DNA of 64,000 bases from contig OZ242262.1 of NCBI GenBank assembly GCA_965207145.1, positions 1,864,827 to 1,928,826 of the forward strand, given 5' to 3'. The stretch is from Dehalococcoidia bacterium (lineage in GTDB: Bacteria; Chloroflexota; Dehalococcoidia; Lucifugimonadales; UBA2962). This document shows positions 9,136 through 64,000 of the stretch, in pieces; position 1 is the first letter of the stretch, and each line of letters opens with the position of its first letter. The translations under genes and the position numbers were made by a program. The notes below the pieces were generated by a model, which searched no databases, was not told the DNA's origin, and saw nothing but the letters and a program-made list of their open reading frames with translations.

Positions 9136-10848
9136 ATGACCCAGTCCACACACCTGTTCAAGCCGGCTAATTTCCAGGCGCGTTACGACGTTAAAGTGCC
9201 GATGCGAGACGGGGTTGAGCTGTCGGCCGATGTTTACCTGCCGCACGATAGAACTGGCCCGGTACCGGCGATCCTTGCCCGCACTCCCTACGACAATGGC
9301 GATTTTGCAGGTCTGACCAAGGTCGTTGATCAGGCCATCTACTTCGTTCAGCACGGCTACGCGTTCGTCGTGCAGGACGTCAGGGGCAGGTTCGACTCGG
9401 AGGGCGAGTTTAATCCCTGGGTAAACGAGTACGACGACGGCCACGACACCGTCGAATGGGTCGGCGAGCAGGAGTGGTGTGACGGCAACGTAGGGATGAT
9501 GGGGTTCTCGTACGTGGGCGGGGTGCAGTGGCAGGCCGCGATGACCGCTCCCGGCCACCTCAAGTGCATCGCGCCGGGCGTGATAGGAGATGATCATCAC
9601 GGCCAGACCCACTTTCAGGGCGGGGCGATGCAGCTGGCTCTGGACATGACCTGGACCTTCGCGACGGACGCTCGTACCTGGCACCCGATCGACAACTACG
9701 ACTGGAAGCGGGTGCTCTCGCACCTGCCCCTGTCGGAGATGGCCGTGGCGGCGGGAAGCTCGGCTGCCAGATTGGCCGACTGGATTGACCACCCGGACTA
9801 CGATGAGTACTGGAAGCGGATCGCCTACAAGGAGCGTTACGAAGACGTGGTGGTGCCCGTACTTCAGATCGGCGGCTGGTACGACACGTTTACGGTGGGC
9901 ACCATGAACAACTTCGTCGGCATGCGCGCCCGGGGAGGCAGCGATCTGGCGCGCGCCAACCAGAAGGTGATCGTGGGGCCCTGGGTTCATCAGGCCAGCG
10001 AGCATACCCATGCAGGGGACAGGGACTTCGGCAAGGACTCGGTGCTAGACCTCAACGCAGAGCACCTGCGGTGGTTCGACCGCTGGCTCAAGGGTGTCGA
10101 AAACGGGGTAGAGGATGAGGCGCCGATCAAGCTGTTTGTCATGGGTGCCGACGAGTGGCGCGACGAGCATGAGTGGCCCCTTGCGAGAACGCGCTTTACG
10201 CCTTTCCACCTCCACAGCGGGGGCGAGGCCAACTCCCTGAGGGGAGACGGCACCCTGAGCGTCGAGGCTCCCGGGGACGAGCCTGCCGACGAGTACGATT
10301 ACAATCCGGCTTTTCCCGTCCCCTCAAACGGCGGCAACAACTGCTGTTTCCCTGAGATCGTCGCCTGGGGCGGCTATGATCAAGACCAGATCGAGCAGCG
10401 CGAGGACGTGCTCGTGTATACCTCCGATGAACTGGAGGAGGATCTGGAGGTCACCGGTCCTGTGATCGCAAAGATATACGCGTCGTCCTCGGCTCCCGAC
10501 ACCGACTTCACCGCAAAGCTGGTCGACGTGCATCCCGATGGTTACGCACTCAATCTGTGCGACGGGATAATCCGCGCTCGCTACCGGGACACGCCCGAGC
10601 GCCAGGTCTTGATGGAACCCGGAAAGGTCTATGAATTCACTATCGACCTTTTCCCCACGTCGAACTTGTTCAGGGCGGGACACCGCATCCGGCTGGAGAT
10701 CTCCAGCAGCAACTTTCCCAGGTTCGACCGCAACCTGAACACGGGCGGCAGGTTTGGCCACGAGACGGACATGCGCGTGGCACACCAGACCGTATATCAC
10801 GACGCCGAAAGGCCCTCGCACGTGCTGCTGCCTGTGATACCGGGCTGA
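9136..10848 (+). CDS. CocE/NonD family hydrolase (X-Pro dipeptidyl-peptidase S15-like)
   Basis: AAGGAGGA RBS. ARTPYD N-terminal motif, nucleophile elbow GFSYVGG, and a C-terminal PepX_C-like beta domain (HRIRLEISSSNFPRFDRN). Confidence 0.85.
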   Translation: MTQSTHLFKPANFQARYDVKVPMRDGVELSADVYLPHDRTGPVPAILARTPYDNGDFAGLTKVVDQAIYFVQHGYAFVVQDVRGRFDSEGEFNPWVNEYDDGHDTVEWVGEQEWCDGNVGMMGFSYVGGVQWQAAMTAPGHLKCIAPGVIGDDHHGQTHFQGGAMQLALDMTWTFATDARTWHPIDNYDWKRVLSHLPLSEMAVAAGSSAARLADWIDHPDYDEYWKRIAYKERYEDVVVPVLQIGGWYDTFTVGTMNNFVGMRARGGSDLARANQKVIVGPWVHQASEHTHAGDRDFGKDSVLDLNAEHLRWFDRWLKGVENGVEDEAPIKLFVMGADEWRDEHEWPLARTRFTPFHLHSGGEANSLRGDGTLSVEAPGDEPADEYDYNPAFPVPSNGGNNCCFPEIVAWGGYDQDQIEQREDVLVYTSDELEEDLEVTGPVIAKIYASSSAPDTDFTAKLVDVHPDGYALNLCDGIIRARYRDTPERQVLMEPGKVYEFTIDLFPTSNLFRAGHRIRLEISSSNFPRFDRNLNTGGRFGHETDMRVAHQTVYHDAERPSHVLLPVIPG

Positions 10849-19542: not shown

Positions 19543-20232
19543 GTGAAGTATATCCAGCACGAAGGCGACTACCTGAAGTTTGTCGCGGTCGAGCCCAACG
19601 GCTACGACCGGAGCGGCTCATATCCGATGATCGTACTCTTGCACGGCTTTGGGGCCCACATGGGCGATCTGGCTGGACTGGCCCCGGCGATTGACTCCCG
19701 GGGCTACGTCTACGTGTTTCCCAACGCCCCCATAGCTATGGATATGGGCATGAAGGGCGAGAACTACGCTTGGGCACCTCTTGGAGGCGACGGCACTGAT
19801 GAGGCGCTGGCTTATGCGGACAGGCTGATTGCCGGCTTCCTGGATGAGGTAGTGAGCATGTATGGACCGCCCGAGGGGCAGGTGGTGCTGGGCGGCTTCT
19901 CACAGGGAGGTATGATGGCCTACCGCAACGCGCTTTCGTACCCGGAGAGGTTCGCGGGGATCGCCGCCCTGAGCTCCATGCTCGGCAGTGGGCGTGATAT
20001 CGAGGGAGTGATGCCTGCCACCAGAGACCAGGCCATATTCGCCTCGCATGGTACTGCCGACACGATGATCCCTGTCGCGGTAGCCCGCAAGAACATCGAA
20101 TTCCTACGATCTCATGGCTACGTCCCTGACTACCGGGAATACTCCATGGCACACGAAGTGTCGCTGCAGGTTGTCTCCGACCTGACGGTCTGGCTCCACA
20201 AAGTCGTCGACCCCTTCATCCCGGCCTCCTAG
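19543..20232 (+). CDS. phospholipase/carboxylesterase-family alpha/beta hydrolase
   Basis: VLLHGFGA and nucleophile elbow GGFSQGG. Confidence 0.8.
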   Translation: MKYIQHEGDYLKFVAVEPNGYDRSGSYPMIVLLHGFGAHMGDLAGLAPAIDSRGYVYVFPNAPIAMDMGMKGENYAWAPLGGDGTDEALAYADRLIAGFLDEVVSMYGPPEGQVVLGGFSQGGMMAYRNALSYPERFAGIAALSSMLGSGRDIEGVMPATRDQAIFASHGTADTMIPVAVARKNIEFLRSHGYVPDYREYSMAHEVSLQVVSDLTVWLHKVVDPFIPAS

Positions 20233-20329
20233 CACCAGAAAGTCCCACCAGGCTCGAAGGGCGGTTCCGCTTGGAAGCGGCCTTGTCGGGGCCGCCGTCT
20301 CCACGTACCATCTGCGCCGGGGAGTAGAC

Positions 20330-21064
20330 TTGGCCAGACGCAACGCGATCCTGGAGAGGGCGGAGAGGGGCGAGAGGTCGCTCGGATGCTGGCTGACCTT
20401 TCCTTCGGTACAGGTGGTCGAACTAATCGCGCTCGCTGGCTTTCACTTCATTCAGATCGACGGTGAGCATGGTCCATTCGCGCCGCAGGACGTCGAGAGC
20501 ACCTGCCTGGCGGCGCAGGCGGTCGGTCTGACGGTCACTGCCAGAATTCCGAGTCTGGACGCCGGCACTGTCAATTCCTACCTTGACAGGGGCATACAGG
20601 GCATCATGGGCCCCCACGTGGAGAGCTCCCTAGAGGCCGCTGCACTGGTCTCCGCCTGTCGATTTGCGCCGGAGGGAGAGCGCAGCTGGGGTGGTGGAAG
20701 GGCCCTGCATTTCAATGATCCGGGCTCCGTGCAGGACGATGACGGAAGTCGGGCTGACGTAATGGCTCGCGCCAACGCCGAGATGATCGTAACGGCCCAA
20801 TTGGAGTCCAAGGCCGCTCTTGATGCCATCGATGATCTGCTCGCCGTTCCCGGGATCGACTACTTCGCGTTCGGCCCAAACGACCTGGCCCAGTCGATGG
20901 GTCTTCCAGGCCGCCCCGAAGACCCTGCTGTCAAGGCTGCCATGGCGCAGACAGTGCAGCGGGTCCACGCCGCCGGCCGCAAGATGACCACGGATGACAT
21001 GTCGATGACGTACGTCCAGAGCCTGCTGCTTGATGCGGGCCGCGCGTTCGTCGAATCCAACTGA
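20330..21064 (+). CDS. HpcH/HpaI-family aldolase
   Basis: GCWLTFPSVQVVELIALAGFHFIQIDGEHGPF is typical of class II 2-keto-3-deoxy-acid aldolases. Confidence 0.8.
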   Translation: MARRNAILERAERGERSLGCWLTFPSVQVVELIALAGFHFIQIDGEHGPFAPQDVESTCLAAQAVGLTVTARIPSLDAGTVNSYLDRGIQGIMGPHVESSLEAAALVSACRFAPEGERSWGGGRALHFNDPGSVQDDDGSRADVMARANAEMIVTAQLESKAALDAIDDLLAVPGIDYFAFGPNDLAQSMGLPGRPEDPAVKAAMAQTVQRVHAAGRKMTTDDMSMTYVQSLLLDAGRAFVESN

Positions 21065-55462: not shown

Positions 55463-55726
55463 CAGTCTAGCAGAGCAGATCAGAGAGACACGCTGAGGCC
55501 TTAAGCTACATTCGCAGTCGATTGAGCCTCATGTGCCGCAAACACTCGGCACAATAGTCGACAGGCAATTCACCAATCGCGAGCTTCGCATCTACCCGGG
55601 TCGACTGGACTCCTGCCCAGACCTACGCGGACGGTCGCACATCGTTAGCCGTTTGCGGGCCAGTTGAGGCCTTCTGCCTCGCCCAAGGCATGGGGAGGTA
55701 GCCTCAAAAGGTGTGTAAACGATCAG

Positions 55727-55788
55727 GCGGTGTAACCTCTCTCTGATCACAGACGGGCTTTTTATGCCCGAGAGAGGAGTACACCGCC
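55727..55788 (+). promoter_or_regulatory. stem-loop sequestering the transposase RBS
   Basis: GGCGGTGTAACCTCTCTC (55727-55744) pairs with GAGAGAGGAGTACACCGCC (55770-55788), which contains the GAGGAG SD. There is an inner CGGGC/GCCCG stem. Confidence 0.4.
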
Positions 55789-55789
55789 C

Positions 55790-57034
55790 ATGGTCAAGGA
55801 GAGCATTGAAACAGGACCTGAGTCAAGGCCGGGATTCGAGCACCTGGAGGACTGGTTGCGAGGTCAGATGCAGGGTCTGATCCAGGACATGCTGGAGGAG
55901 GAGGTCACCGAGTTCCTGGGCAGGGCCAGGTCGGTGCGCCGGTCGGGATCCGATAGGGACTCTGGGTACCGAAACGGTCACGGAAGCCCCCGGAGGCTGA
56001 CGCTGAGCTCGGGGACGATCCAGGTGAGGCGGCCGAGGGTACGTGATACCGAGGAGCGGTTCGAGAGCAGGCTTCTTCCCCTGTTCGCCAACAGGAGCCG
56101 GCAGGTCGACGTCCTGCTTCCGGAACTGTACCTGCACGGTCTGTCGGAGGGGGACTTCGACCTGGCGCTGCGAGGTCTGCTGGGCGAGGCCGCTCCGATA
56201 TCGGCCAGCACGATCGCGCGTCTGAAGGACAGGTGGAACGCAGAGCTCGCCGAGTGGCGGGGAAGGTCCCTTTCCGAGCTAGAGGTAGTCTACATGTGGG
56301 TGGACGGGGTGTACGTGAAGGCGGGCCTGGAGCGTGAGAAGGCCGCGATCCTGGTGGTTGTGGCGGCGCTGAGCGACGGGAGCAAGGTGGTCCTGAGCGC
56401 GGTGCCCGGGTACCGGGAGTCCACACGGAGCTGGTCGGATGTGCTCAGGGACCTGAGGGACCGCGGTCTCAGCTGCCCGCGGCTGGTGGTCGGAGACGGT
56501 CATCTGGGGATCTGGGGGGCGCTTGGCAACGTGTACCCGGAGGCGGGAGAGCAGCGCTGCTGGAACCACAAGATCCTCAACGTGCTCGACAAGCTTCCCA
56601 AACGTCAGCATGACCAGGCAAAGCTGATGCTGCGCAGCATGCCGTACGCTCCCACCCGGGCCGAGGCAGAGCGGCTCAGGCGGGTCTTCACGCGGTGGTG
56701 CGGCGAGCACTCCTACGAAGCAGCCCGTGAGGCTATCGAGCGTGACTGGGACAGGATGGTGGCCTTCTACGACTACCCCAAACAGCACTGGCGTCACCTG
56801 AGAACGACCAACCCGGTCGAGTCGCCCTTCGCTGCGCTGCGCATCCGGACGGATGCGGCCAGGCGCTATAAGAAGGTGGACCGGGCGATCGCAGTCATAT
56901 GGAAGATGCTGATGGTGGCCGAGAACAGGTTCCGGCGCCTGCAGGCGCCGGAGCTGATGGCTGACGTCTACCTCGGTGCCAGGTACAAGGACGGGGTCGC
57001 CATCGAGCAACAGGAAGAGAGGATCGCCGCCTGA
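55790..57034 (+). CDS. IS256-family (Mutator-type) transposase
   Basis: YMWVDGVYVKAG ... VVGDGHLGIWGAL ... QRCWNHKILNVLDKLPK signature (DDE with the CWxHK motif). Confidence 0.9.
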   Translation: MVKESIETGPESRPGFEHLEDWLRGQMQGLIQDMLEEEVTEFLGRARSVRRSGSDRDSGYRNGHGSPRRLTLSSGTIQVRRPRVRDTEERFESRLLPLFANRSRQVDVLLPELYLHGLSEGDFDLALRGLLGEAAPISASTIARLKDRWNAELAEWRGRSLSELEVVYMWVDGVYVKAGLEREKAAILVVVAALSDGSKVVLSAVPGYRESTRSWSDVLRDLRDRGLSCPRLVVGDGHLGIWGALGNVYPEAGEQRCWNHKILNVLDKLPKRQHDQAKLMLRSMPYAPTRAEAERLRRVFTRWCGEHSYEAAREAIERDWDRMVAFYDYPKQHWRHLRTTNPVESPFAALRIRTDAARRYKKVDRAIAVIWKMLMVAENRFRRLQAPELMADVYLGARYKDGVAIEQQEERIAA

Positions 57035-57803
57035 TCGCTTTTACACACCCTTTGACGCAACCTCCCGGGCGGTGGAGTAACTACAGTGCATTGCGAACTG
57101 TTCGGCGTGCGGCGGCAGGATAGAATTCCGGTTAAATTACCCCTGCCGTCTGAGCCTACTCCCTTCCAACTTCCTTGGCAGCAGGTAAGATCAACCGGTT
57201 GTGTCGCAGTTTGAGCCACGCGTAGGGCGGCACCGCAGGCGAACGGTTCCCTGAGAGAGTCTCAGTCTGAGAGTGGAGTCAGTTTAGCCTCGGCTACCGC
57301 AGTTGACGTACAGGACGGCCGATCCGAAGGCGGACGCGGCAAGGATCGGTGTCATCCACTTAGCAAACTCGATGATGGTCCGAGAGTTATGTCCTCTAGG
57401 AGGTCCTCCTGCCACTGTTCACCTTGCAGCTTGGACATTCAGGGGGCGTTGTTCTTCGATGTGCCTGATGTGTTTTTTTCAAGGCATTCCGCAGGCGGAC
57501 TGCACCGTCATACGAAAAGAGGTGACAGTTCTCTTCAATTTGCAACTCCAGGCTCGCAAGGCCATCAGGCCAGTCCTCGACCTACACCACTATGTGAGCC
57601 AAGTTAGGCTTCCTCTTCCTTCCAAACCTCGCAAGGTTTCCTATGTCTAGGCCATTTCACTTCGGGCCTTCCTACGATCCGGTTCCGCCGCTTTCCGTAA
57701 CCGGATTGCAGCACTTACCCGAGTCCGGCGTCGGATACCCGAAGGCGAAGGGCGAGGGCGACGGGGTCAAGGTACCGTAGAGCCGACGAGAGGAGTCGTG
57801 AAT

Positions 57804-58745
57804 ATGCCTATCTGGTCCTTCAGCGATCTTGGAGAGCTGTTTTCAAACCAGTCGATTGGCCTCTGGGAGCGTTTGAGCTACGTCAGGGAGTCCATCAAGA
57901 GCCGCGGCGTCCTTGGGCCGGTGAGGTTCGGGGAGGAGACGATCACTGACCTGCTGATGATGGACCTCTACGTCCAGGGGTCGACGCTGGCCCTCTTCCA
58001 GCAGACCTCCAAGCCCGAGGAGGCCATGTGGGGGACCGACTTCGAGCTGTGGCTGGGGTCGGACCCGCTTGGGTGGTTTCGATTCGCCATCCAGGCCAAG
58101 AAGCTCGACCTGAGGAGCGGCAGGTACGCTTCCCTCACGCAGAGCAACGTCAACGGAAAGCAGATTGACCTCCTCGAACGATACGCCGGGCGCAAGCGTG
58201 CCGCGCCGCTGTACTGCCTCTACAACCACACCGACGATGCGAACGAGCTGAACCACTGGCATTGCTGCACCGGCCCCGCCAACCTGAAGGACCTCGGGTG
58301 CTCCGTCACCCCGTCGTCGAACATCCGCAAGGCCATCGGCCAGTGGAAGGGCAAGAACTTCAAGAGCATTCACCAGAGGAAGAACACGCTGCCCTGGAAG
58401 TGCCTGGTCTCCTGCCCATCGGTGTGGTACCTGCTCCAGGTCAAGTCGGGGAAGGGCACCGGGAGCCCTATAATCCGGGAGACGCCCCTGTTTGATGCCG
58501 ACTCCTGTTACCACGATACATTGCCTCTGGCGCTTCGGATGCAGGATCAGCCAGCCGTCGTACGGCGAAGCGAGCGTGGGGGTTCGCTGATATCGATACC
58601 GCTGGATGCGGAGAGGGACATCGATCAGGCTGCCGACGCGTTCGGGCGGGAGGTCCGTCGCGACTTCAGGGAATGGTATGACCCGGAAACCGGATCGCCC
58701 AAAGCGGCTGCCGTCATAGAAGTGCAAGGTCCTGCTCTGAGATGA
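57804..58745 (+). CDS. hypothetical protein with PD-(D/E)xK-like nuclease-fold motifs
   Basis: AGGAG lies 8 nt before ATG 57804. Pattern: EETITDLLMMDL helix, GTDFELWLG strand, RFAIQAKKL strand (E...D-x-E...QxK). The opposite-strand 294-aa ORF is R/P/G/L-rich shadow. Confidence 0.55.
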   Translation: MPIWSFSDLGELFSNQSIGLWERLSYVRESIKSRGVLGPVRFGEETITDLLMMDLYVQGSTLALFQQTSKPEEAMWGTDFELWLGSDPLGWFRFAIQAKKLDLRSGRYASLTQSNVNGKQIDLLERYAGRKRAAPLYCLYNHTDDANELNHWHCCTGPANLKDLGCSVTPSSNIRKAIGQWKGKNFKSIHQRKNTLPWKCLVSCPSVWYLLQVKSGKGTGSPIIRETPLFDADSCYHDTLPLALRMQDQPAVVRRSERGGSLISIPLDAERDIDQAADAFGREVRRDFREWYDPETGSPKAAAVIEVQGPALR

Positions 58746-58817: not shown

Positions 58818-59663
58818 ATGTCGATCCCTGAATCGACGCTCTCCAGATGGAGCCACCATCGGGCTGCGACGGCCTTCACGCAGGCGCACCTTCCCATCCG
58901 GGCCGCCTTGGACAACTACAGTTGGCCCTCGGACATCACGTACGAGGTTTTCCTTCAGGGCTCCTACAAGAACGACACGAACCTCGGCGGGGACAGTGAT
59001 GTCGACGTGGTGGTGCGGTTGAACCATCGGCTCAGGCCGCGAGTGGCCGAGCTCACGGGCCGGCAGTTGCGGGGTGACGCTTCCCGCCAAGGGGCATACC
59101 AGCGGTGGAAGTCCTTCAGGGACCATGCGCTCAAGGCGATGAGAGCTAGGTTCGGGAATGCCGCCAAGAGCGGCCGGAAGACCGTGAAGGTGCCGAAAGG
59201 CAAGATCCCGGCGGACGCCGACCTCGTCGTCACGCTGCGCTACAGGGAAGGCATAGCGTTCTACCTACCGGATGAAGGACGCTGGGTCTTCAGCTTTCCG
59301 CAGCAGCACCACGCTCAGGGTCAGAAGAAGGAAGAGGCAACCAACCGGCGGTTCAAGCGGACCATCCGTATGTTCAAAGCGGCACGGAACCGGCTGGTCG
59401 AGACGGAGGCGCTCACCAAAAGTGATGTCCCCTCCTACTTCATCGAATGCCTGCTCTACAACGTCCCCGACGACCTGTTCAAACCGAAGCTGGTGCCGAG
59501 GTATACGGTCATCGTCGATTGGCTGAAGACAGCGAGGCTCGGTGATCTCAAATGCCAGAACGGCCAAGTGGAACTGTTCGGCTCGGGCAAGGAGCAGTGG
59601 TCCGTGAAGAAGGCGCGGGCGTTCGTCAGGGCGTTGGAGAAGCTGTGGGAGGCGGGGGCATGA
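58818..59663 (+). CDS. nucleotidyltransferase, CD-NTase/SMODS-like (Pol-beta fold with helical C-domain)
   Basis: LQGSYKNDTNLGGDSDVDVVVRL (GS...DxD) at 58959-59006. A later ADADLVVTL carries the third acidic residue. C-terminal region FKRTIRMFKAARN...PSYFIECLLYNVP is typical of cGAS/DncV-like enzymes. Confidence 0.65.
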   Translation: MSIPESTLSRWSHHRAATAFTQAHLPIRAALDNYSWPSDITYEVFLQGSYKNDTNLGGDSDVDVVVRLNHRLRPRVAELTGRQLRGDASRQGAYQRWKSFRDHALKAMRARFGNAAKSGRKTVKVPKGKIPADADLVVTLRYREGIAFYLPDEGRWVFSFPQQHHAQGQKKEEATNRRFKRTIRMFKAARNRLVETEALTKSDVPSYFIECLLYNVPDDLFKPKLVPRYTVIVDWLKTARLGDLKCQNGQVELFGSGKEQWSVKKARAFVRALEKLWEAGA

Positions 59664-59875: not shown

Positions 59876-59905
59876 TTGATCGTAAGAAAAGGGAGATTCT
59901 ATACT
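59876..59905 (+). promoter_or_regulatory. sigma70-like promoter for the HTH/DruA-like/large-ORF operon
   Basis: TTGATC (59876-59881), 18-nt spacer, TATACT (59900-59905). It lies about 45 nt upstream of ATG 59950. Confidence 0.4.
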
Positions 59906-59949
59906 TTCGCCGACTTTCATGGCCATTGATATGTAAGGGCGGTACTGAC

Positions 59950-60171
59950 ATGAGTCTCACGGAGAGCTGGGTGAACATTGCGGAAGTGGCAGCGCACCTA
60001 CAAGTTACGAAGGATTCGATATATCGCTGGGTCGATTCGAAGGGTTTTCCGGCTCACCGCGCCGGGCGACTATTGAGATTCAAGCTATCAGAAGTAGACA
60101 CATGGGTGCGGTCAGGTAGTGATGAGCACACTCCTTTAGAGGGTCATAACAGAAGCGCAGATGACAACTAA
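59950..60171 (+). CDS. small excisionase/MerR-type HTH DNA-binding protein (HTH_17-like)
   Basis: VNIAEVAAHLQVTKDSIYRWVDSKGFPAHRAGRLLRFKLSEVDTWV. The start is taken at the internal ATG 59950. It overlaps the next gene by 11 nt. Confidence 0.75.
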   Translation: MSLTESWVNIAEVAAHLQVTKDSIYRWVDSKGFPAHRAGRLLRFKLSEVDTWVRSGSDEHTPLEGHNRSADDN

Positions 60172-61405
60172 ATCAACTGGCCCGGATTCGGCCGTATTTC
60201 AGGAGGGGCATCTCTCGGCGGGAGCCAATGGTTCTTCGCTGTCTAGTGACCGCGCTGACGGAGCGTCCTTGAAGAGCGCAATACACGAGCACCTGTTGAA
60301 TCTAGGCTTCTCTCGGAATGGCAGTGGCTATTTCGTCGATGGAGTTTTGACGAAGCAGAAGATCCGGAATCTTCATGCCGCCCAACGGGTCGACATCCTG
60401 GAGCGGCATAGGAGCTTTGTTGAAACGCATGGCACCGAATTGGCGAGGCATTTTGCGAGCGGTAGTCAGGTTGACACCGGGTCGATTAGTCCAAGGCTAG
60501 TCCCGGTTCTTCCGGGCTCCCTTGAGTCTCGATTGTTCAGATTTGCTTCGCTGCTGTGGTCTGTGCCAGTGTCGCAGGGCTTTGGGCGTCGACTGCGTTT
60601 CCTCGTCAAGGACAGACAGAACGATTGTTTGATCGGCCTCTTCGCTCTGGGAGACCCCGTCTTCAATCTTTCCGCTCGGGACAATTGGATCGGCTGGACA
60701 CACGAGGACCGCCGGGATCGACTCGTCCATGTAATGGATGCCTATGTTGTTGGCGCCGTTCCTCCATACTCTCAATTGATTGGTGGGAAACTCGTGGCCG
60801 CACTCATGGGTAGCAAGGAGGTGCGACGAGCCTACGAACGGAAGTACCTGGCCCGGCAATCAGTGATTCGCCAGAGGACACATCGGGCGCGTCTGGTGCT
60901 TTTGACGACAACATCGGCTCTGGGTCGTTCATCGATCTACAACCGTCTGACCATACCGGACGGTCCTCGCTTCCTCAGGATTGGTACGACCAAGGGTTTC
61001 GGTCACTTTCATCTTTACGGCGAAGTGTTCGATTCGCTCAGGGATCATCTGGAGGAGACTGGGCACCCCTATGCTTCCGGCCACAGGTTCGGCATGGGGC
61101 CAAACTGGAAGCTGCGCGTCGCAAGAGCCGCACTTGAGGACATTGGCATTGACGGAAACTCAGTCTTGAAGCACGGCATCGAGCGTGAAGTGTACGCCAT
61201 CCCACTGGCTGAGAATTGGAAGAAGGTCATATCGGGTGAGCATCAGAGAGTCCGCTCCCTTGCCAAGCCGGCCGCCGAAATCTCGAAGTACTGCTTGGAC
61301 CGTTGGATCGTGCCTCGATCGGAGCGGGACACGAGTTTTCGTAGCTTTGACAAGGACATCATCATACCTACTTTGTTGAACGGAGGCCCTGGGGCAACGT
61401 GGTAA
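60161..61405 (+). CDS. DruA-like protein (DUF4338-like core)
   Basis: GRRLRFLVKDRQNDCLIGLFALGDPVFNLSARDNWIGWTHEDRRDRL (60584-60697) resembles, from memory, the DUF4338 signature (RLRYLV...RDxWIGW) of Druantia DruA. Size is 414 aa. Confidence 0.55.
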   Translation: MTTKSTGPDSAVFQEGHLSAGANGSSLSSDRADGASLKSAIHEHLLNLGFSRNGSGYFVDGVLTKQKIRNLHAAQRVDILERHRSFVETHGTELARHFASGSQVDTGSISPRLVPVLPGSLESRLFRFASLLWSVPVSQGFGRRLRFLVKDRQNDCLIGLFALGDPVFNLSARDNWIGWTHEDRRDRLVHVMDAYVVGAVPPYSQLIGGKLVAALMGSKEVRRAYERKYLARQSVIRQRTHRARLVLLTTTSALGRSSIYNRLTIPDGPRFLRIGTTKGFGHFHLYGEVFDSLRDHLEETGHPYASGHRFGMGPNWKLRVARAALEDIGIDGNSVLKHGIEREVYAIPLAENWKKVISGEHQRVRSLAKPAAEISKYCLDRWIVPRSERDTSFRSFDKDIIIPTLLNGGPGATW

Positions 61406-64000
61406 TGATCTCTGAACTAGAGGCATGGCAGACGCGCCTGTCACTTCACTTTGCGACTCTCAGGGACAGTCAGCGCGCAAGTGGAACAGGGGAGTCCCTC
61501 TTTGCTCTTGAACACGGTCTGACAGAGTCGGAGGTATCAGCTCTTGAGGGGGCGGTGCGAGCTCACATCGCGTCCCGTGCGCCATCACGCGACCATTGGC
61601 TGGTATGGGTCGTGTACTCTGCCGAACTGGGCTATCGGTACGCCGGTGACGAGTACTGGCAGACGTTCGAACAAGAGACCCCGGGATGGATCGTCAACGG
61701 AGACCGCTACAGGATTCGCGATTTCTACAGACGGTTCGAAAGGGAATTCGGCGGCGCAGTACCTTCGGGTCCTTGGGCTGCGCAATTCTCCATCATATGT
61801 TGGCCCATCACGCATGCCATCCTTCCAAAGGACTTGCAGGTGCAACTTGCCCGGACGCTCTATGAGTGCAGGTTCCTGTTCTCAGAGGATGTTCTCGGGT
61901 CGCCAGAGCGGTTGGGTGGCCTCCTCGCCGCACGGAGTTGGAACGCGTCGTCCCGCTTCAGAAACCTAGCGGAAGACACACGCCTCTTGGGGCAGATCGC
62001 TGCGGCTCTTCTCACCCAGGGACGGCCTGCGTCCGGTGAGCTCATATACCCGGCGACATTACAGAGGATCAGCGAGGACCTTGACCGAGAGCGACAAGCA
62101 CGAGAGTGGATTAGGAAAGCACGTAGTTCCGCAGATGAACGCGTGCAGGTCCGCGGTCTCGGCCCCGTCAGCAGCCGGGCAATTCCGTCCAGCATTAGTC
62201 AAATAGGCGAGGCAAGGGCGGCTGTCGCGCAACTAGGAATCGAGCCACGTCTCGTTCTTCGACCAAGAGACGCATCCGAGAGATTGTGGGACATACTGCT
62301 AGAGGTCCCTAGCCTGGCTCATTTGTTGCTGCGATTCCCTCAGACTCGGGAGATACTCACCGGCTCGCGCTGCGTTGTTGCGGGATCGCAAGGACGCCGC
62401 TTAGCGCGAGGTCGCCTCGTTTATGGCGCTCAGCGCATAAGGCTGGTCAGGTGGCCGAAATCCGACGAAGTGCTGCTGCAATTCGAGAAGAAGGACCCGC
62501 AACTTGACTTCCTCCTTCGTACGGAGTGTCTGCTCCGGCCTGGTTACACTTGGCTCTTGAGGATCGCTTCCGATGGTCTGGCCTATGAGCTCAGGGGCTT
62601 GAGAGTTAGGCCAGATGAGCGCTATGTCATCCTTAGCATGGATGGACCGGTCGACGGAGGCGGGCACGTTACCCCGATTGAGGTAGGGTGCGAGGGAGTC
62701 AACGCCGCGATCCTTGACCTGCCCAAGTCTCTCGACGAAGACTGGCAACAGTCGATTCAGAATCTAGGCCTTGGGCAGGCAAGGGGCATCGAGGTTTGGC
62801 CCGCCGGTTTGTCCGCAGTGGCTTGGGACGGCGAAGGGAATGGCGAGTGGCTGGCCTCCGAGCGACCATGCCTTGCCATTCTTGCGGACTATCCCCTGGA
62901 ATCCCTCAGGGTCTCTATTGATTCAAGCCCCCTTCACGTCTTCGAGTTGGCAACTCTGGAAGCAGGGGAACTCTTGTTTCTCGAACTTCCTCTGCTTCCT
63001 ATAGGGATGCATAAGCTGAGATTCTCAGCAAGTAGCAATCTGGCAGGTGAGATTGAAGCGCTCGCCGATCAAGAAGCCACGATACGCATTCTTGAAGACA
63101 GGCCGCAACCTTCAACGATTGACTTTCGGGGACCGCTGTCAGTGCAGGTCGACCCCCCACACCCCACCATGGAGCAACTCTGGGATGGTGAGGTTGAGGT
63201 CCTGCTTCAAGGTCCTCAGCACCGTGAGGTTTCTTGTCGCGTCTCCCTACTTGCGAGAAATGAAGGGGGTACGATTCTTGCGAAAGACCTGCCGCCGGTC
63301 AGATTGCCTTTATCTCCCAATGATTGGAGGGATCACTTCGAACAACGTTTTCGAAAAAGTGAAGACGTACAAGAGGCATACGACCGGGCCAACGCCTGCG
63401 TACTGGAGTTCGGTGTTGGTGAACTCGGAAGTTTCGTGCTCCGATGCGAGCGCACCTTCACTCCACTCAGGTGGACGTTACGACGGGAGGGTAACGCATA
63501 TGTGACGCGGCTCTATGATGACAGCGGTCACACGGGGCGACCCACAATCAGTCATGTTGCTTTCGAGGCTCCTTCTAGCGAACAAGAGTTGCCGTTCGAT
63601 GAAGAAATCCATGTTGCAGATGACGGTGGGATGTATATCGCACGAACACAGGCTCATACGGTGGCAATCATTGCTCCGCCCGTGCTCCACCACGGCTTCG
63701 GACTCGCCGCGTTAGGCCTCAAACCAGAAATAGAGCGCCTGAGGCGTTCCACTGACTCCGTCATAAGGGTGACGGAGATTGCGGCTCTTTGGAGCCGGGC
63801 GAGGCTGCCCGGCGGTCTCATGGCCGTAGTCCGACGGCAGCAGGTAATGATGGCATTGACCCGCGAACTCTCTCGCCTTGTGGGTGGAGACAATTGGGCG
63901 AGAGCAGAAGAGGAGGCTGACATTAGTGGCAGAGGCACCTGGACCTTAGAAGCCTTGTCCCAAGCGATATCCAAGAACCCTACAGAGGCCGGAGTTGGCC
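61405..64000 (+). CDS. large protein of unknown function, 5' part only (at least 865 codons, open at window end)
   Basis: The ATG overlaps the DruA-like stop (TAATG). By manual translation, frame 1 has no stop to position 64000 (MISELEAWQTRLSLHFATLRD...). It is absent from the ORF track, presumably because it has no stop. No Walker A or DEAD/DEAH motif was seen. Confidence 0.75.
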   Translation, partial: MISELEAWQTRLSLHFATLRDSQRASGTGESLFALEHGLTESEVSALEGAVRAHIASRAPSRDHWLVWVVYSAELGYRYAGDEYWQTFEQETPGWIVNGDRYRIRDFYRRFEREFGGAVPSGPWAAQFSIICWPITHAILPKDLQVQLARTLYECRFLFSEDVLGSPERLGGLLAARSWNASSRFRNLAEDTRLLGQIAAALLTQGRPASGELIYPATLQRISEDLDRERQAREWIRKARSSADERVQVRGLGPVSSRAIPSSISQIGEARAAVAQLGIEPRLVLRPRDASERLWDILLEVPSLAHLLLRFPQTREILTGSRCVVAGSQGRRLARGRLVYGAQRIRLVRWPKSDEVLLQFEKKDPQLDFLLRTECLLRPGYTWLLRIASDGLAYELRGLRVRPDERYVILSMDGPVDGGGHVTPIEVGCEGVNAAILDLPKSLDEDWQQSIQNLGLGQARGIEVWPAGLSAVAWDGEGNGEWLASERPCLAILADYPLESLRVSIDSSPLHVFELATLEAGELLFLELPLLPIGMHKLRFSASSNLAGEIEALADQEATIRILEDRPQPSTIDFRGPLSVQVDPPHPTMEQLWDGEVEVLLQGPQHREVSCRVSLLARNEGGTILAKDLPPVRLPLSPNDWRDHFEQRFRKSEDVQEAYDRANACVLEFGVGELGSFVLRCERTFTPLRWTLRREGNAYVTRLYDDSGHTGRPTISHVAFEAPSSEQELPFDEEIHVADDGGMYIARTQAHTVAIIAPPVLHHGFGLAALGLKPEIERLRRSTDSVIRVTEIAALWSRARLPGGLMAVVRRQQVMMALTRELSRLVGGDNWARAEEEADISGRGTWTLEALSQAISKNPTEAGVG

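Follow-up and report, generated by a model that had tools for sequence, protein, structure and literature searches.

The 3' end of a 64,000-nt stretch of DNA from a Dehalococcoidia bacterium (contig OZ242262.1, positions 1,864,827 to 1,928,826; hereinafter referred to as the window) probably carries the promoter-proximal half of an anti-phage operon resembling Druantia type I. The order would be HTH-druA-druX-(druD-druE), in which HTH denotes a helix-turn-helix gene, the bracketed genes would lie beyond the window end, and a single protein, X, replaces both DruB and DruC. We estimate the probability of this reading at roughly 85%. The analysis showed which genes are present and in what order, that their junctions are tightly coupled, that the four-gene block is conserved in many phyla and that DruB and DruC are absent. 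Druantia type I consists of druABCDE (Doron et al. 2018), the composition filed in PADLOC as druantia_type_I. The window contained the following features of the operon.

59876..59905, + strand: promoter-like site with consensus boxes, kept in relatives
59903..59920, + strand: two 8-nt direct repeats, a candidate operator
59950..60171, + strand: HTH gene, 73 aa, from the ATG at 59950 to the TAA at 60171
60161..61405, + strand: druA, 414 aa, DUF4338/DruA (PF14236, PADLOC DruA1)
61405..64000, + strand: 5' part of 'druX', first 865 codons, frame open to the window end

The 414-aa middle protein was unambiguously assigned to DruA on the basis of its sequence. It matched Pfam PF14236 (8.3e-86; 288 bits, cut-off 27) over profile positions 2-296 of 297, as well as the PADLOC model DruA1 (1e-139), and was 42-47% identical to plasmid DruA proteins annotated in RefSeq. 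An earlier interpretation made from the nucleotide letters without database searches (the sequence-only reading) had described this protein as DUF4338-like and hence as DruA-like, and the strong matches obtained when 60161..61405 was run against PF14236 and PADLOC confirmed it. The DUF4338 domain has been taken as a GNAT-like fold (PMC10853773). Sequence-profile searches of PDB with DruA gave nothing meaningful.

The HTH open reading frame (ORF) and the druA ORF overlap by 11 nt, and the druA stop codon TAA (61403-61405) and the druX start codon ATG (61405-61407) have one base in common (TAATG). The third ORF continues for 865 codons without a stop up to the window end. The TTGATC-N18-TATACT promoter, the three ORFs coupled by these two overlaps and the open frame of at least 865 codons had all been described in the sequence-only reading and agreed with the coordinates and the sequence of the window, as did the presence of a DNA-binding HTH gene, absent from canonical type I, coupled ahead of druA. 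The third ORF had also been called giant, which did not hold. A database protein of 986 aa (P0001) was 100% identical to druX over all 865 codons in the window, and its contig also carried an identical DruA. Given this length, about 365 nt (121 codons) of druX are missing from the window, and the gene is expected to end near position 64365.

The genes beyond druX were examined in relatives, whose loci are numbered with the prefix L; where X was 68-81% identical to that of the window, the operon ran on into DruD and DruE. In L001 and L002, in which X was 81% and 69% identical to that of the window, genes for a CD-NTase-like protein, the 73-aa HTH protein, DruA and X (986-988 aa) were followed by two more genes, with junctions that overlapped or nearly abutted. 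The first of the two encodes a 358/359-aa protein that matched PADLOC DruD1 (2.2e-115). The second encodes a protein of 1,843/1,845 aa that carries DEAD, Helicase_C and MZB (DUF1998) domains and scored 1922 bits with PADLOC DruE1 versus 580-642 bits with DruE2, DruE3 and DruE4. Downstream sequence exceeded 3 kb at 44 X loci; DruD adjoined X in 43 of these, and DruD and DruE were both present in 41. We infer from these sequences that druD (~360 aa) and druE (~1,845 aa) follow druX in the genome of the window as well. Because the type I models of DruA, DruD and DruE were all matched in this lineage, the system is Druantia type I-like rather than a different system. For types II, III and IV, no gene of the block matched PADLOC DruM/DruF/DruG, DruH or DruL. 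The sequence-only reading had offered two options, a fused or rearranged Druantia variant and a different system reusing a DruA-like module; a non-canonical Druantia was upheld, whereas the different system was contradicted by the 43/44 and 41/44 counts. It had also considered that a standard druB-E set might lie downstream, of which druD and druE were present in relatives but druB and druC were not. Straight after druE, L002 contained a further 435-aa ORF (19622..20929, + strand), absent from L001, which had no PADLOC match and showed weak Pfam matches to HEPN (0.007) and Zn-ribbon (0.019) domains.

X had no match in Pfam-A, PADLOC-DB 2.0.0 (DruH models included) or NCBIfam 20.0, even at permissive thresholds, and sequence-profile searches of PDB gave nothing meaningful. 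This bore out the earlier statement that the ORF after DruA exceeds DruB in length and shows no NTPase motifs; Pfam, PADLOC and NCBIfam revealed neither an NTPase nor any other recognizable domain. An exhaustive profile search (E<=1e-3) yielded 1,539 cluster representatives of the X family at 50% identity, and the length of X was steady at 950-1,000 aa across the ~1,500 clusters. When clusters were counted at 90% identity in a word-limited search, X accounted for at least 1,054, versus 74 for DruB and 144 for DruC.

Both the canonical and the X-type layout were found in RefSeq by tblastn of DruA against plasmids. Plasmid pKF715A of P. putida carried the canonical five-gene block, namely DruA, two proteins of 558 aa and 625 aa, DruD and DruE; its DruD was also matched strongly in PADLOC. 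The 558-aa protein corresponded to PADLOC DruB (PDLC00005; 6e-230) and the 625-aa protein to DruC (5e-272); these strong matches indicate that the PADLOC models of DruB and DruC work, yet they miss X. No match of X to DruB was obtained with PADLOC at E<=10, and likewise none to DruC. BLASTP of X against the P. putida DruB and DruC was empty for both, and searches with hidden Markov models (HMMs) between X and DruB/DruC in both directions gave no cross match above noise among 9,481 ORFs. Further, no separate gene was found in relatives between X and DruD, the position of DruC. The X-type layout was found on plasmid pNWAT01 of Nitrosococcus watsonii C-113 (NC_014316.1), with the same gene order druA-X-druD-druE.

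WP_041351085.1: DruA
WP_013221941.1: X, 955 aa
WP_013221942.1: DruD, 360 aa
WP_013221943.1: DruE, 1,849 aa

The pNWAT01 X was 32% identical to the window-type X over the full length (6e-163) and was likewise without a PADLOC match, and the DruD was matched by the same PADLOC model (PDLC00010). This locus differed from that of the window in having no HTH gene upstream and in belonging to another X clade ('X955'). In RefSeq, its X and DruD are annotated as hypothetical proteins and its DruE as a DEAD/DEAH box helicase.

The X-type layout thus shares with Druantia type I a leading DruA, the type I-specific PADLOC matches (DruA1, DruD1 and DruE1) and a block of ~11 kb of co-directional, tightly coupled genes, which in relatives has DruD followed by a ~1,850-aa DruE (DEAD, Helicase_C, MZB/DUF1998) in last place. 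In contrast to type I, the layout has neither DruB (558 aa, with a CoiA_N zinc ribbon) nor DruC (625 aa, with a coiled coil); their slot is occupied by one protein of 950-1,000 aa from an unrelated or undetectably related family, and the sub-clade of the window has an additional HTH_17 gene coupled ahead of druA.

The AlphaFold2 model of X had a mean predicted local distance difference test (pLDDT) score of 81 and a predicted template modelling score of 0.43, as expected for a multi-domain protein. In this model, an all-helical N-domain (residues ~1-247), where the majority of invariant positions are located, is followed by a beta-rich core of tandem immunoglobulin (Ig)-like beta-sandwiches (~280-760) and a helical C-domain (~780-970). 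No catalytic fold was recognizable in the model by Foldseek against PDB and BFVD, which returned only Ig, fibronectin type III and macroglobulin-type beta-sandwich arrays (TM ~0.1). The model of a canonical DruB (pLDDT 81) showed, besides the CoiA_N zinc ribbon, a core rich in beta-strands and a short tail of helices, and matched the same kind of tandem Ig-like arrays as X. Canonical DruB (L004 15205..16881; P0121-P0194) had an N-terminal CoiA_N domain (PF25164, 1.7e-6) with invariant C26, C29, H47 and C56, and is named 'competence protein CoiA family' in several sources.

These data bear on the alternative that the locus is an ordinary five-gene type I system, whose long ORF would be a fusion of DruB and DruC or an assembly artefact joining druB and druC. 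X occupies the exact position of DruB plus DruC, and the models predict a tandem beta-sandwich core common to X and DruB. In hhalign comparisons, X ~230-470 was repeatedly aligned with DruB ~30-265, and the predicted secondary structures agreed at 52% of the aligned positions versus 36 +/- 3.5% at shifted registers. Even with deep alignments, however, this recurrent alignment of the beta-rich cores was weak and not significant (E 0.05-0.4), while the alignment of X with DruC gave E values of 0.43-0.47, and the BLASTP and HMM searches described above were empty or at noise. Moreover, X has neither the CoiA_N zinc ribbon of DruB nor the coiled coil of DruC, and with 986 aa it is ~200 aa shorter than DruB and DruC combined (1,183 aa). 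The constancy of its length across ~1,500 clusters argues that X is not an artefact. We therefore rejected the DruC half of such a fusion on the BLASTP and hhalign results and regard the DruB half as unproven; the fused DruB-DruC that had been suggested from the letters found no support at the sequence or profile level, apart from the weak core alignment. Taken as a whole, this alternative is improbable.

To place the layout among DruA systems, species-representative genomes were scanned with a DruA alignment. Of the 237 loci obtained, the best 80 were kept and classified by BLASTP against reference components, and after addition of earlier-fetched loci and removal of duplicates the set comprised 82 loci. 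X was present in 53 of them and DruB plus DruC in 5, a ratio that is indicative only, because X-type DruA made up most of the query alignment and the retained loci are those closest to it. Nine loci had only a DruE-like helicase immediately 5' of DruA, and the remaining 15 were other or incomplete. The arrangement druA-X-druD-druE was the commonest DruA context in this genome scan and is not a rare layout, being common among environmental bacteria. Hosts included Dehalococcoidia and other Chloroflexota, Planctomycetota, Acidobacteriota, Gemmatimonadota, Desulfobacterota, Alpha- and Gammaproteobacteria, and Bacteroidota.

X-type systems fell into two large clades of a neighbour-joining DruA tree, with the canonical systems nested beside one of them and the P. 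putida DruA as sister to the Nitrosococcus DruA. This topology, which comes from a plain distance method and calls for cautious reading, suggests module exchange within type I. Several X-type loci looked decayed. In L012 (11203..14177), X was split into ORFs of 752 aa and 247 aa, and in L024 and L072 DruE was broken into several ORFs, which may be pseudogenes or errors in the assembly of metagenome-assembled genomes.

The -35 box TTGATC (59876-59881) and the -10 box TATACT (59900-59905) are separated by an 18-nt spacer and precede the ATG of the HTH gene at 59950. The match to the promoter consensus as such was at chance level, with 3 sites in 57-64 kb versus 2.2 +/- 1.7 in shuffled sequences. 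The motif TTGAC(C)-N17/18-TCTATACT was kept in L001, L002, L007, L008 and L011 and was degenerate in L009, and the flank farther upstream diverged. A real promoter is supported by this conservation of the boxes, and not of the upstream flank, in six relatives. The copies of a direct repeat, ACTTTCGC (59903-59910) and ACTTTCAT (59913-59920), follow each other with a period of 10 nt and extend over the -10 box and the probable start of transcription. The repeat pair was ACTTTCAT-AG-ACTTTCAT in L002, and in L008 and L011 it was ACTATCAT or ACTGTCAT, followed by AG and then ACTTTCAT. In the distant L014, whose HTH protein was 54% identical, both copies were altered together (ACTCTCGT-AG-ACTCTCGT). 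The repeats are a candidate operator through which the HTH protein may regulate its own operon.

The HTH protein belongs to the HTH_17 or excisionase/MerR-like class (Pfam HTH_17, 1.3e-13) and also matched the excisionase-family domain TIGR01764 of NCBIfam (1.6e-12) and PADLOC mad1 (2e-9). A gene for it was found directly 5' of druA only in the closest sub-clade of the window (L001, L002, L007, L008, L009 and L011), and the more distant loci carrying an HTH gene were L014, L016 and L021. The 11-nt overlap with druA was the same in close relatives where examined. Being confined to one sub-clade, the HTH gene is a lineage-specific add-on and not part of the X-type layout. An opening small HTH_17 protein in a large defence operon is also a feature of the methylation-associated defence system (MADS), with which the window shares the mad1 match. 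In contrast to MADS, the score with the NCBIfam model MADS1 (61.4 bits) was under the equivalog cut-off of 80, and no MAD2-MAD8 genes were present; the only other mad match in the block was a weak one to mad8 (9e-5) within DruE of relatives. The HTH protein was therefore rejected as a MAD1 equivalog.

Upstream of the operon, the window contained an insertion sequence (IS) and a pair of defence-like genes.

55693..57066: IS256/Mutator-family insertion sequence, flanked by a PIG-L deacetylase gene on one side and the defence genes on the other
57798..58745, + strand: DUF6615 protein, 315 aa (Pfam, 7.6e-11)
58818..59663, + strand: CD-NTase-like nucleotidyltransferase, 281 aa (PADLOC 'Cyclase' PDLC00788, 2.8e-78)

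The IS256 element comprises a transposase gene (55790..57034; Pfam Transposase_mut, 5.8e-57) and terminal inverted repeats of 27 nt at 55693-55719 and 57040-57066, which are 89% complementary. The GC content of this part was 0.55-0.60, versus ~0.62 in the bulk of the window. A lower-GC stretch beside an IS256 element and another defence-like pair had been noted before and was recovered here by GC content, Pfam and PADLOC. The CD-NTase-like protein scored 212 bits with NCBIfam NF053871 ('DS2_2 anti-phage nucleotidyltransferase'), under the cut-off of 350. [quoted passage not shown]

One alternative is that this pair and the Druantia genes together make up a single composite system, with Druantia controlled by a nucleotide signal. 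Directly 5' of HTH-druA, the nucleotidyltransferase gene occurs not only in the window but also in L001, L002, L008, L009 and L011, of which L009 comes from a different Chloroflexota class; L001 and L008 have the DUF6615 gene as well. Nevertheless, the pair was missing from most X-type loci, the HTH gene has a conserved promoter of its own and is set off by a gap of 286 nt, and the nucleotidyltransferase matches a stand-alone anti-phage family, although below its cut-off. Synteny among near relatives would be equally expected from a defence island moving as a block. We consider a composite system quite unlikely.

Least plausible of all, and very unlikely, is a non-Druantia system or mobile-element module that reuses DruA, with the HTH protein as an excisionase or a MADS-like marker: the TIGR01764 and mad1 matches, the IS256 element 2.9 kb upstream and the occurrence of DruA elsewhere, including about nine loci with only a DruE-like helicase directly upstream, speak for it, but HTH-DruA-X runs on into DruD and DruE in every close relative, MADS1 scored only 61 bits against 80 with no other mad gene present, no integrase gene or tRNA was found in or near the block, and the HTH/druA overlap conserved in close relatives fits an operon member.

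Several points weigh against the reading of the region as a Druantia type I-like operon, in addition to the composition of the census set mentioned above. The window ends within druX, so that druD and druE of this genome are predicted by way of relatives. The roles given to X, DruA and DruD are inferred; 20 DruD sequences matched nothing in Pfam or among PDB sequences, and the gene block yielded no methyltransferase. HTH_17 proteins also include excisionases, and the DNA-binding role of the HTH protein here is putative. Finally, no phage challenge of an X-type system was found in the literature.

If the operon is a Druantia type I-like system, its action may be pictured from what is established for Druantia and the YprA/MrfA helicase family. 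DruE, a large superfamily 2 (SF2) helicase with a DUF1998/MZB zinc domain, would be the ATP-driven motor that engages phage DNA, and the GNAT-like DruA, DruD and X may form an accessory module for discriminating or licensing the target. Such discrimination would be correlated, in the type I system of E. coli, with N6-methyladenine (m6A) marking of host DNA; the system has been linked to this mark, and no methyltransferase was identified (10.1101/2024.04.14.589459). DruD was considered as a methyltransferase on one weak PADLOC MTase_II match (0.002) and was rejected in view of the 20 DruD sequences without Pfam or PDB-sequence support. To judge from the predicted structures, X is most likely a scaffold or sensing subunit, as DruB (zinc ribbon, tandem beta-sandwiches) and DruC (coiled coil) would be in the canonical system. 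The HTH protein, co-transcribed from the conserved promoter that overlaps the direct repeats, is most likely an autoregulator of the operon.

Mechanistic work was found in the literature only on Druantia type III, apart from the preprint linking type I to m6A. Type III (DruH-DruE) resembles the X-type layout in combining a homologous YprA-family DruE with an accessory protein of ~1,000 aa without a recognized catalytic domain, but differs in having neither DruA nor DruD. The DruE of type III has phospholipase D-like nuclease domains, whereas type I DruE, an SF2 helicase of the YprA/MrfA family, has a Vsr-like domain that is inactivated (PMC12458937). Studies of the type III mechanism have described recognition of single-stranded or forked phage DNA by DruE, and directional unwinding.

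That DruA, DruD and DruE stay together while the slot protein differs indicates a conserved core separable from an exchangeable module. More tentatively, druA-X-druD-druE may be the main, and possibly the ancestral, form of type I, with DruA, DruD and DruE as an invariant engine, an exchangeable Ig-like sensing or specificity module in the middle slot and, in one sub-clade, an HTH autoregulator acting on a direct-repeat operator; this wider view is possible and not the likelier one. X versus DruB/DruC offers a natural swap for experiments. No description of the X-type layout was found in the literature, and the class, widespread as it is (~1,500 clusters at 50% identity, many phyla), was uncatalogued in the three libraries searched. 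Detection tools that require DruB and DruC would under-call or mislabel such systems. The locus in the window is an ordinary member of the X-type group, and its own features are the coupled HTH gene and the candidate operator.

The census also returned loci of another kind. Some ten species encoded a DruE-like helicase of ~1,800 aa (31-33% identical to X-type DruE) directly 5' of a DruA of ~420 aa, and no X, DruB, DruC or DruD was detectable alongside. These loci look like another uncatalogued, possibly two-gene, Druantia arrangement. In nine of them (L043, L045, L046, L049, L053, L057, L077, L078 and L085), the DruE-like gene stopped ~3-20 nt short of druA, around locus position 9900-10000, and L003 and L081 were similar. 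In L081, DruA was followed by a DruB-like protein of 534 aa (hmmsearch, 5e-24), and on the Meiothermus plasmid L003 an ORF of 381 aa lay between the DruE-like gene and DruA.

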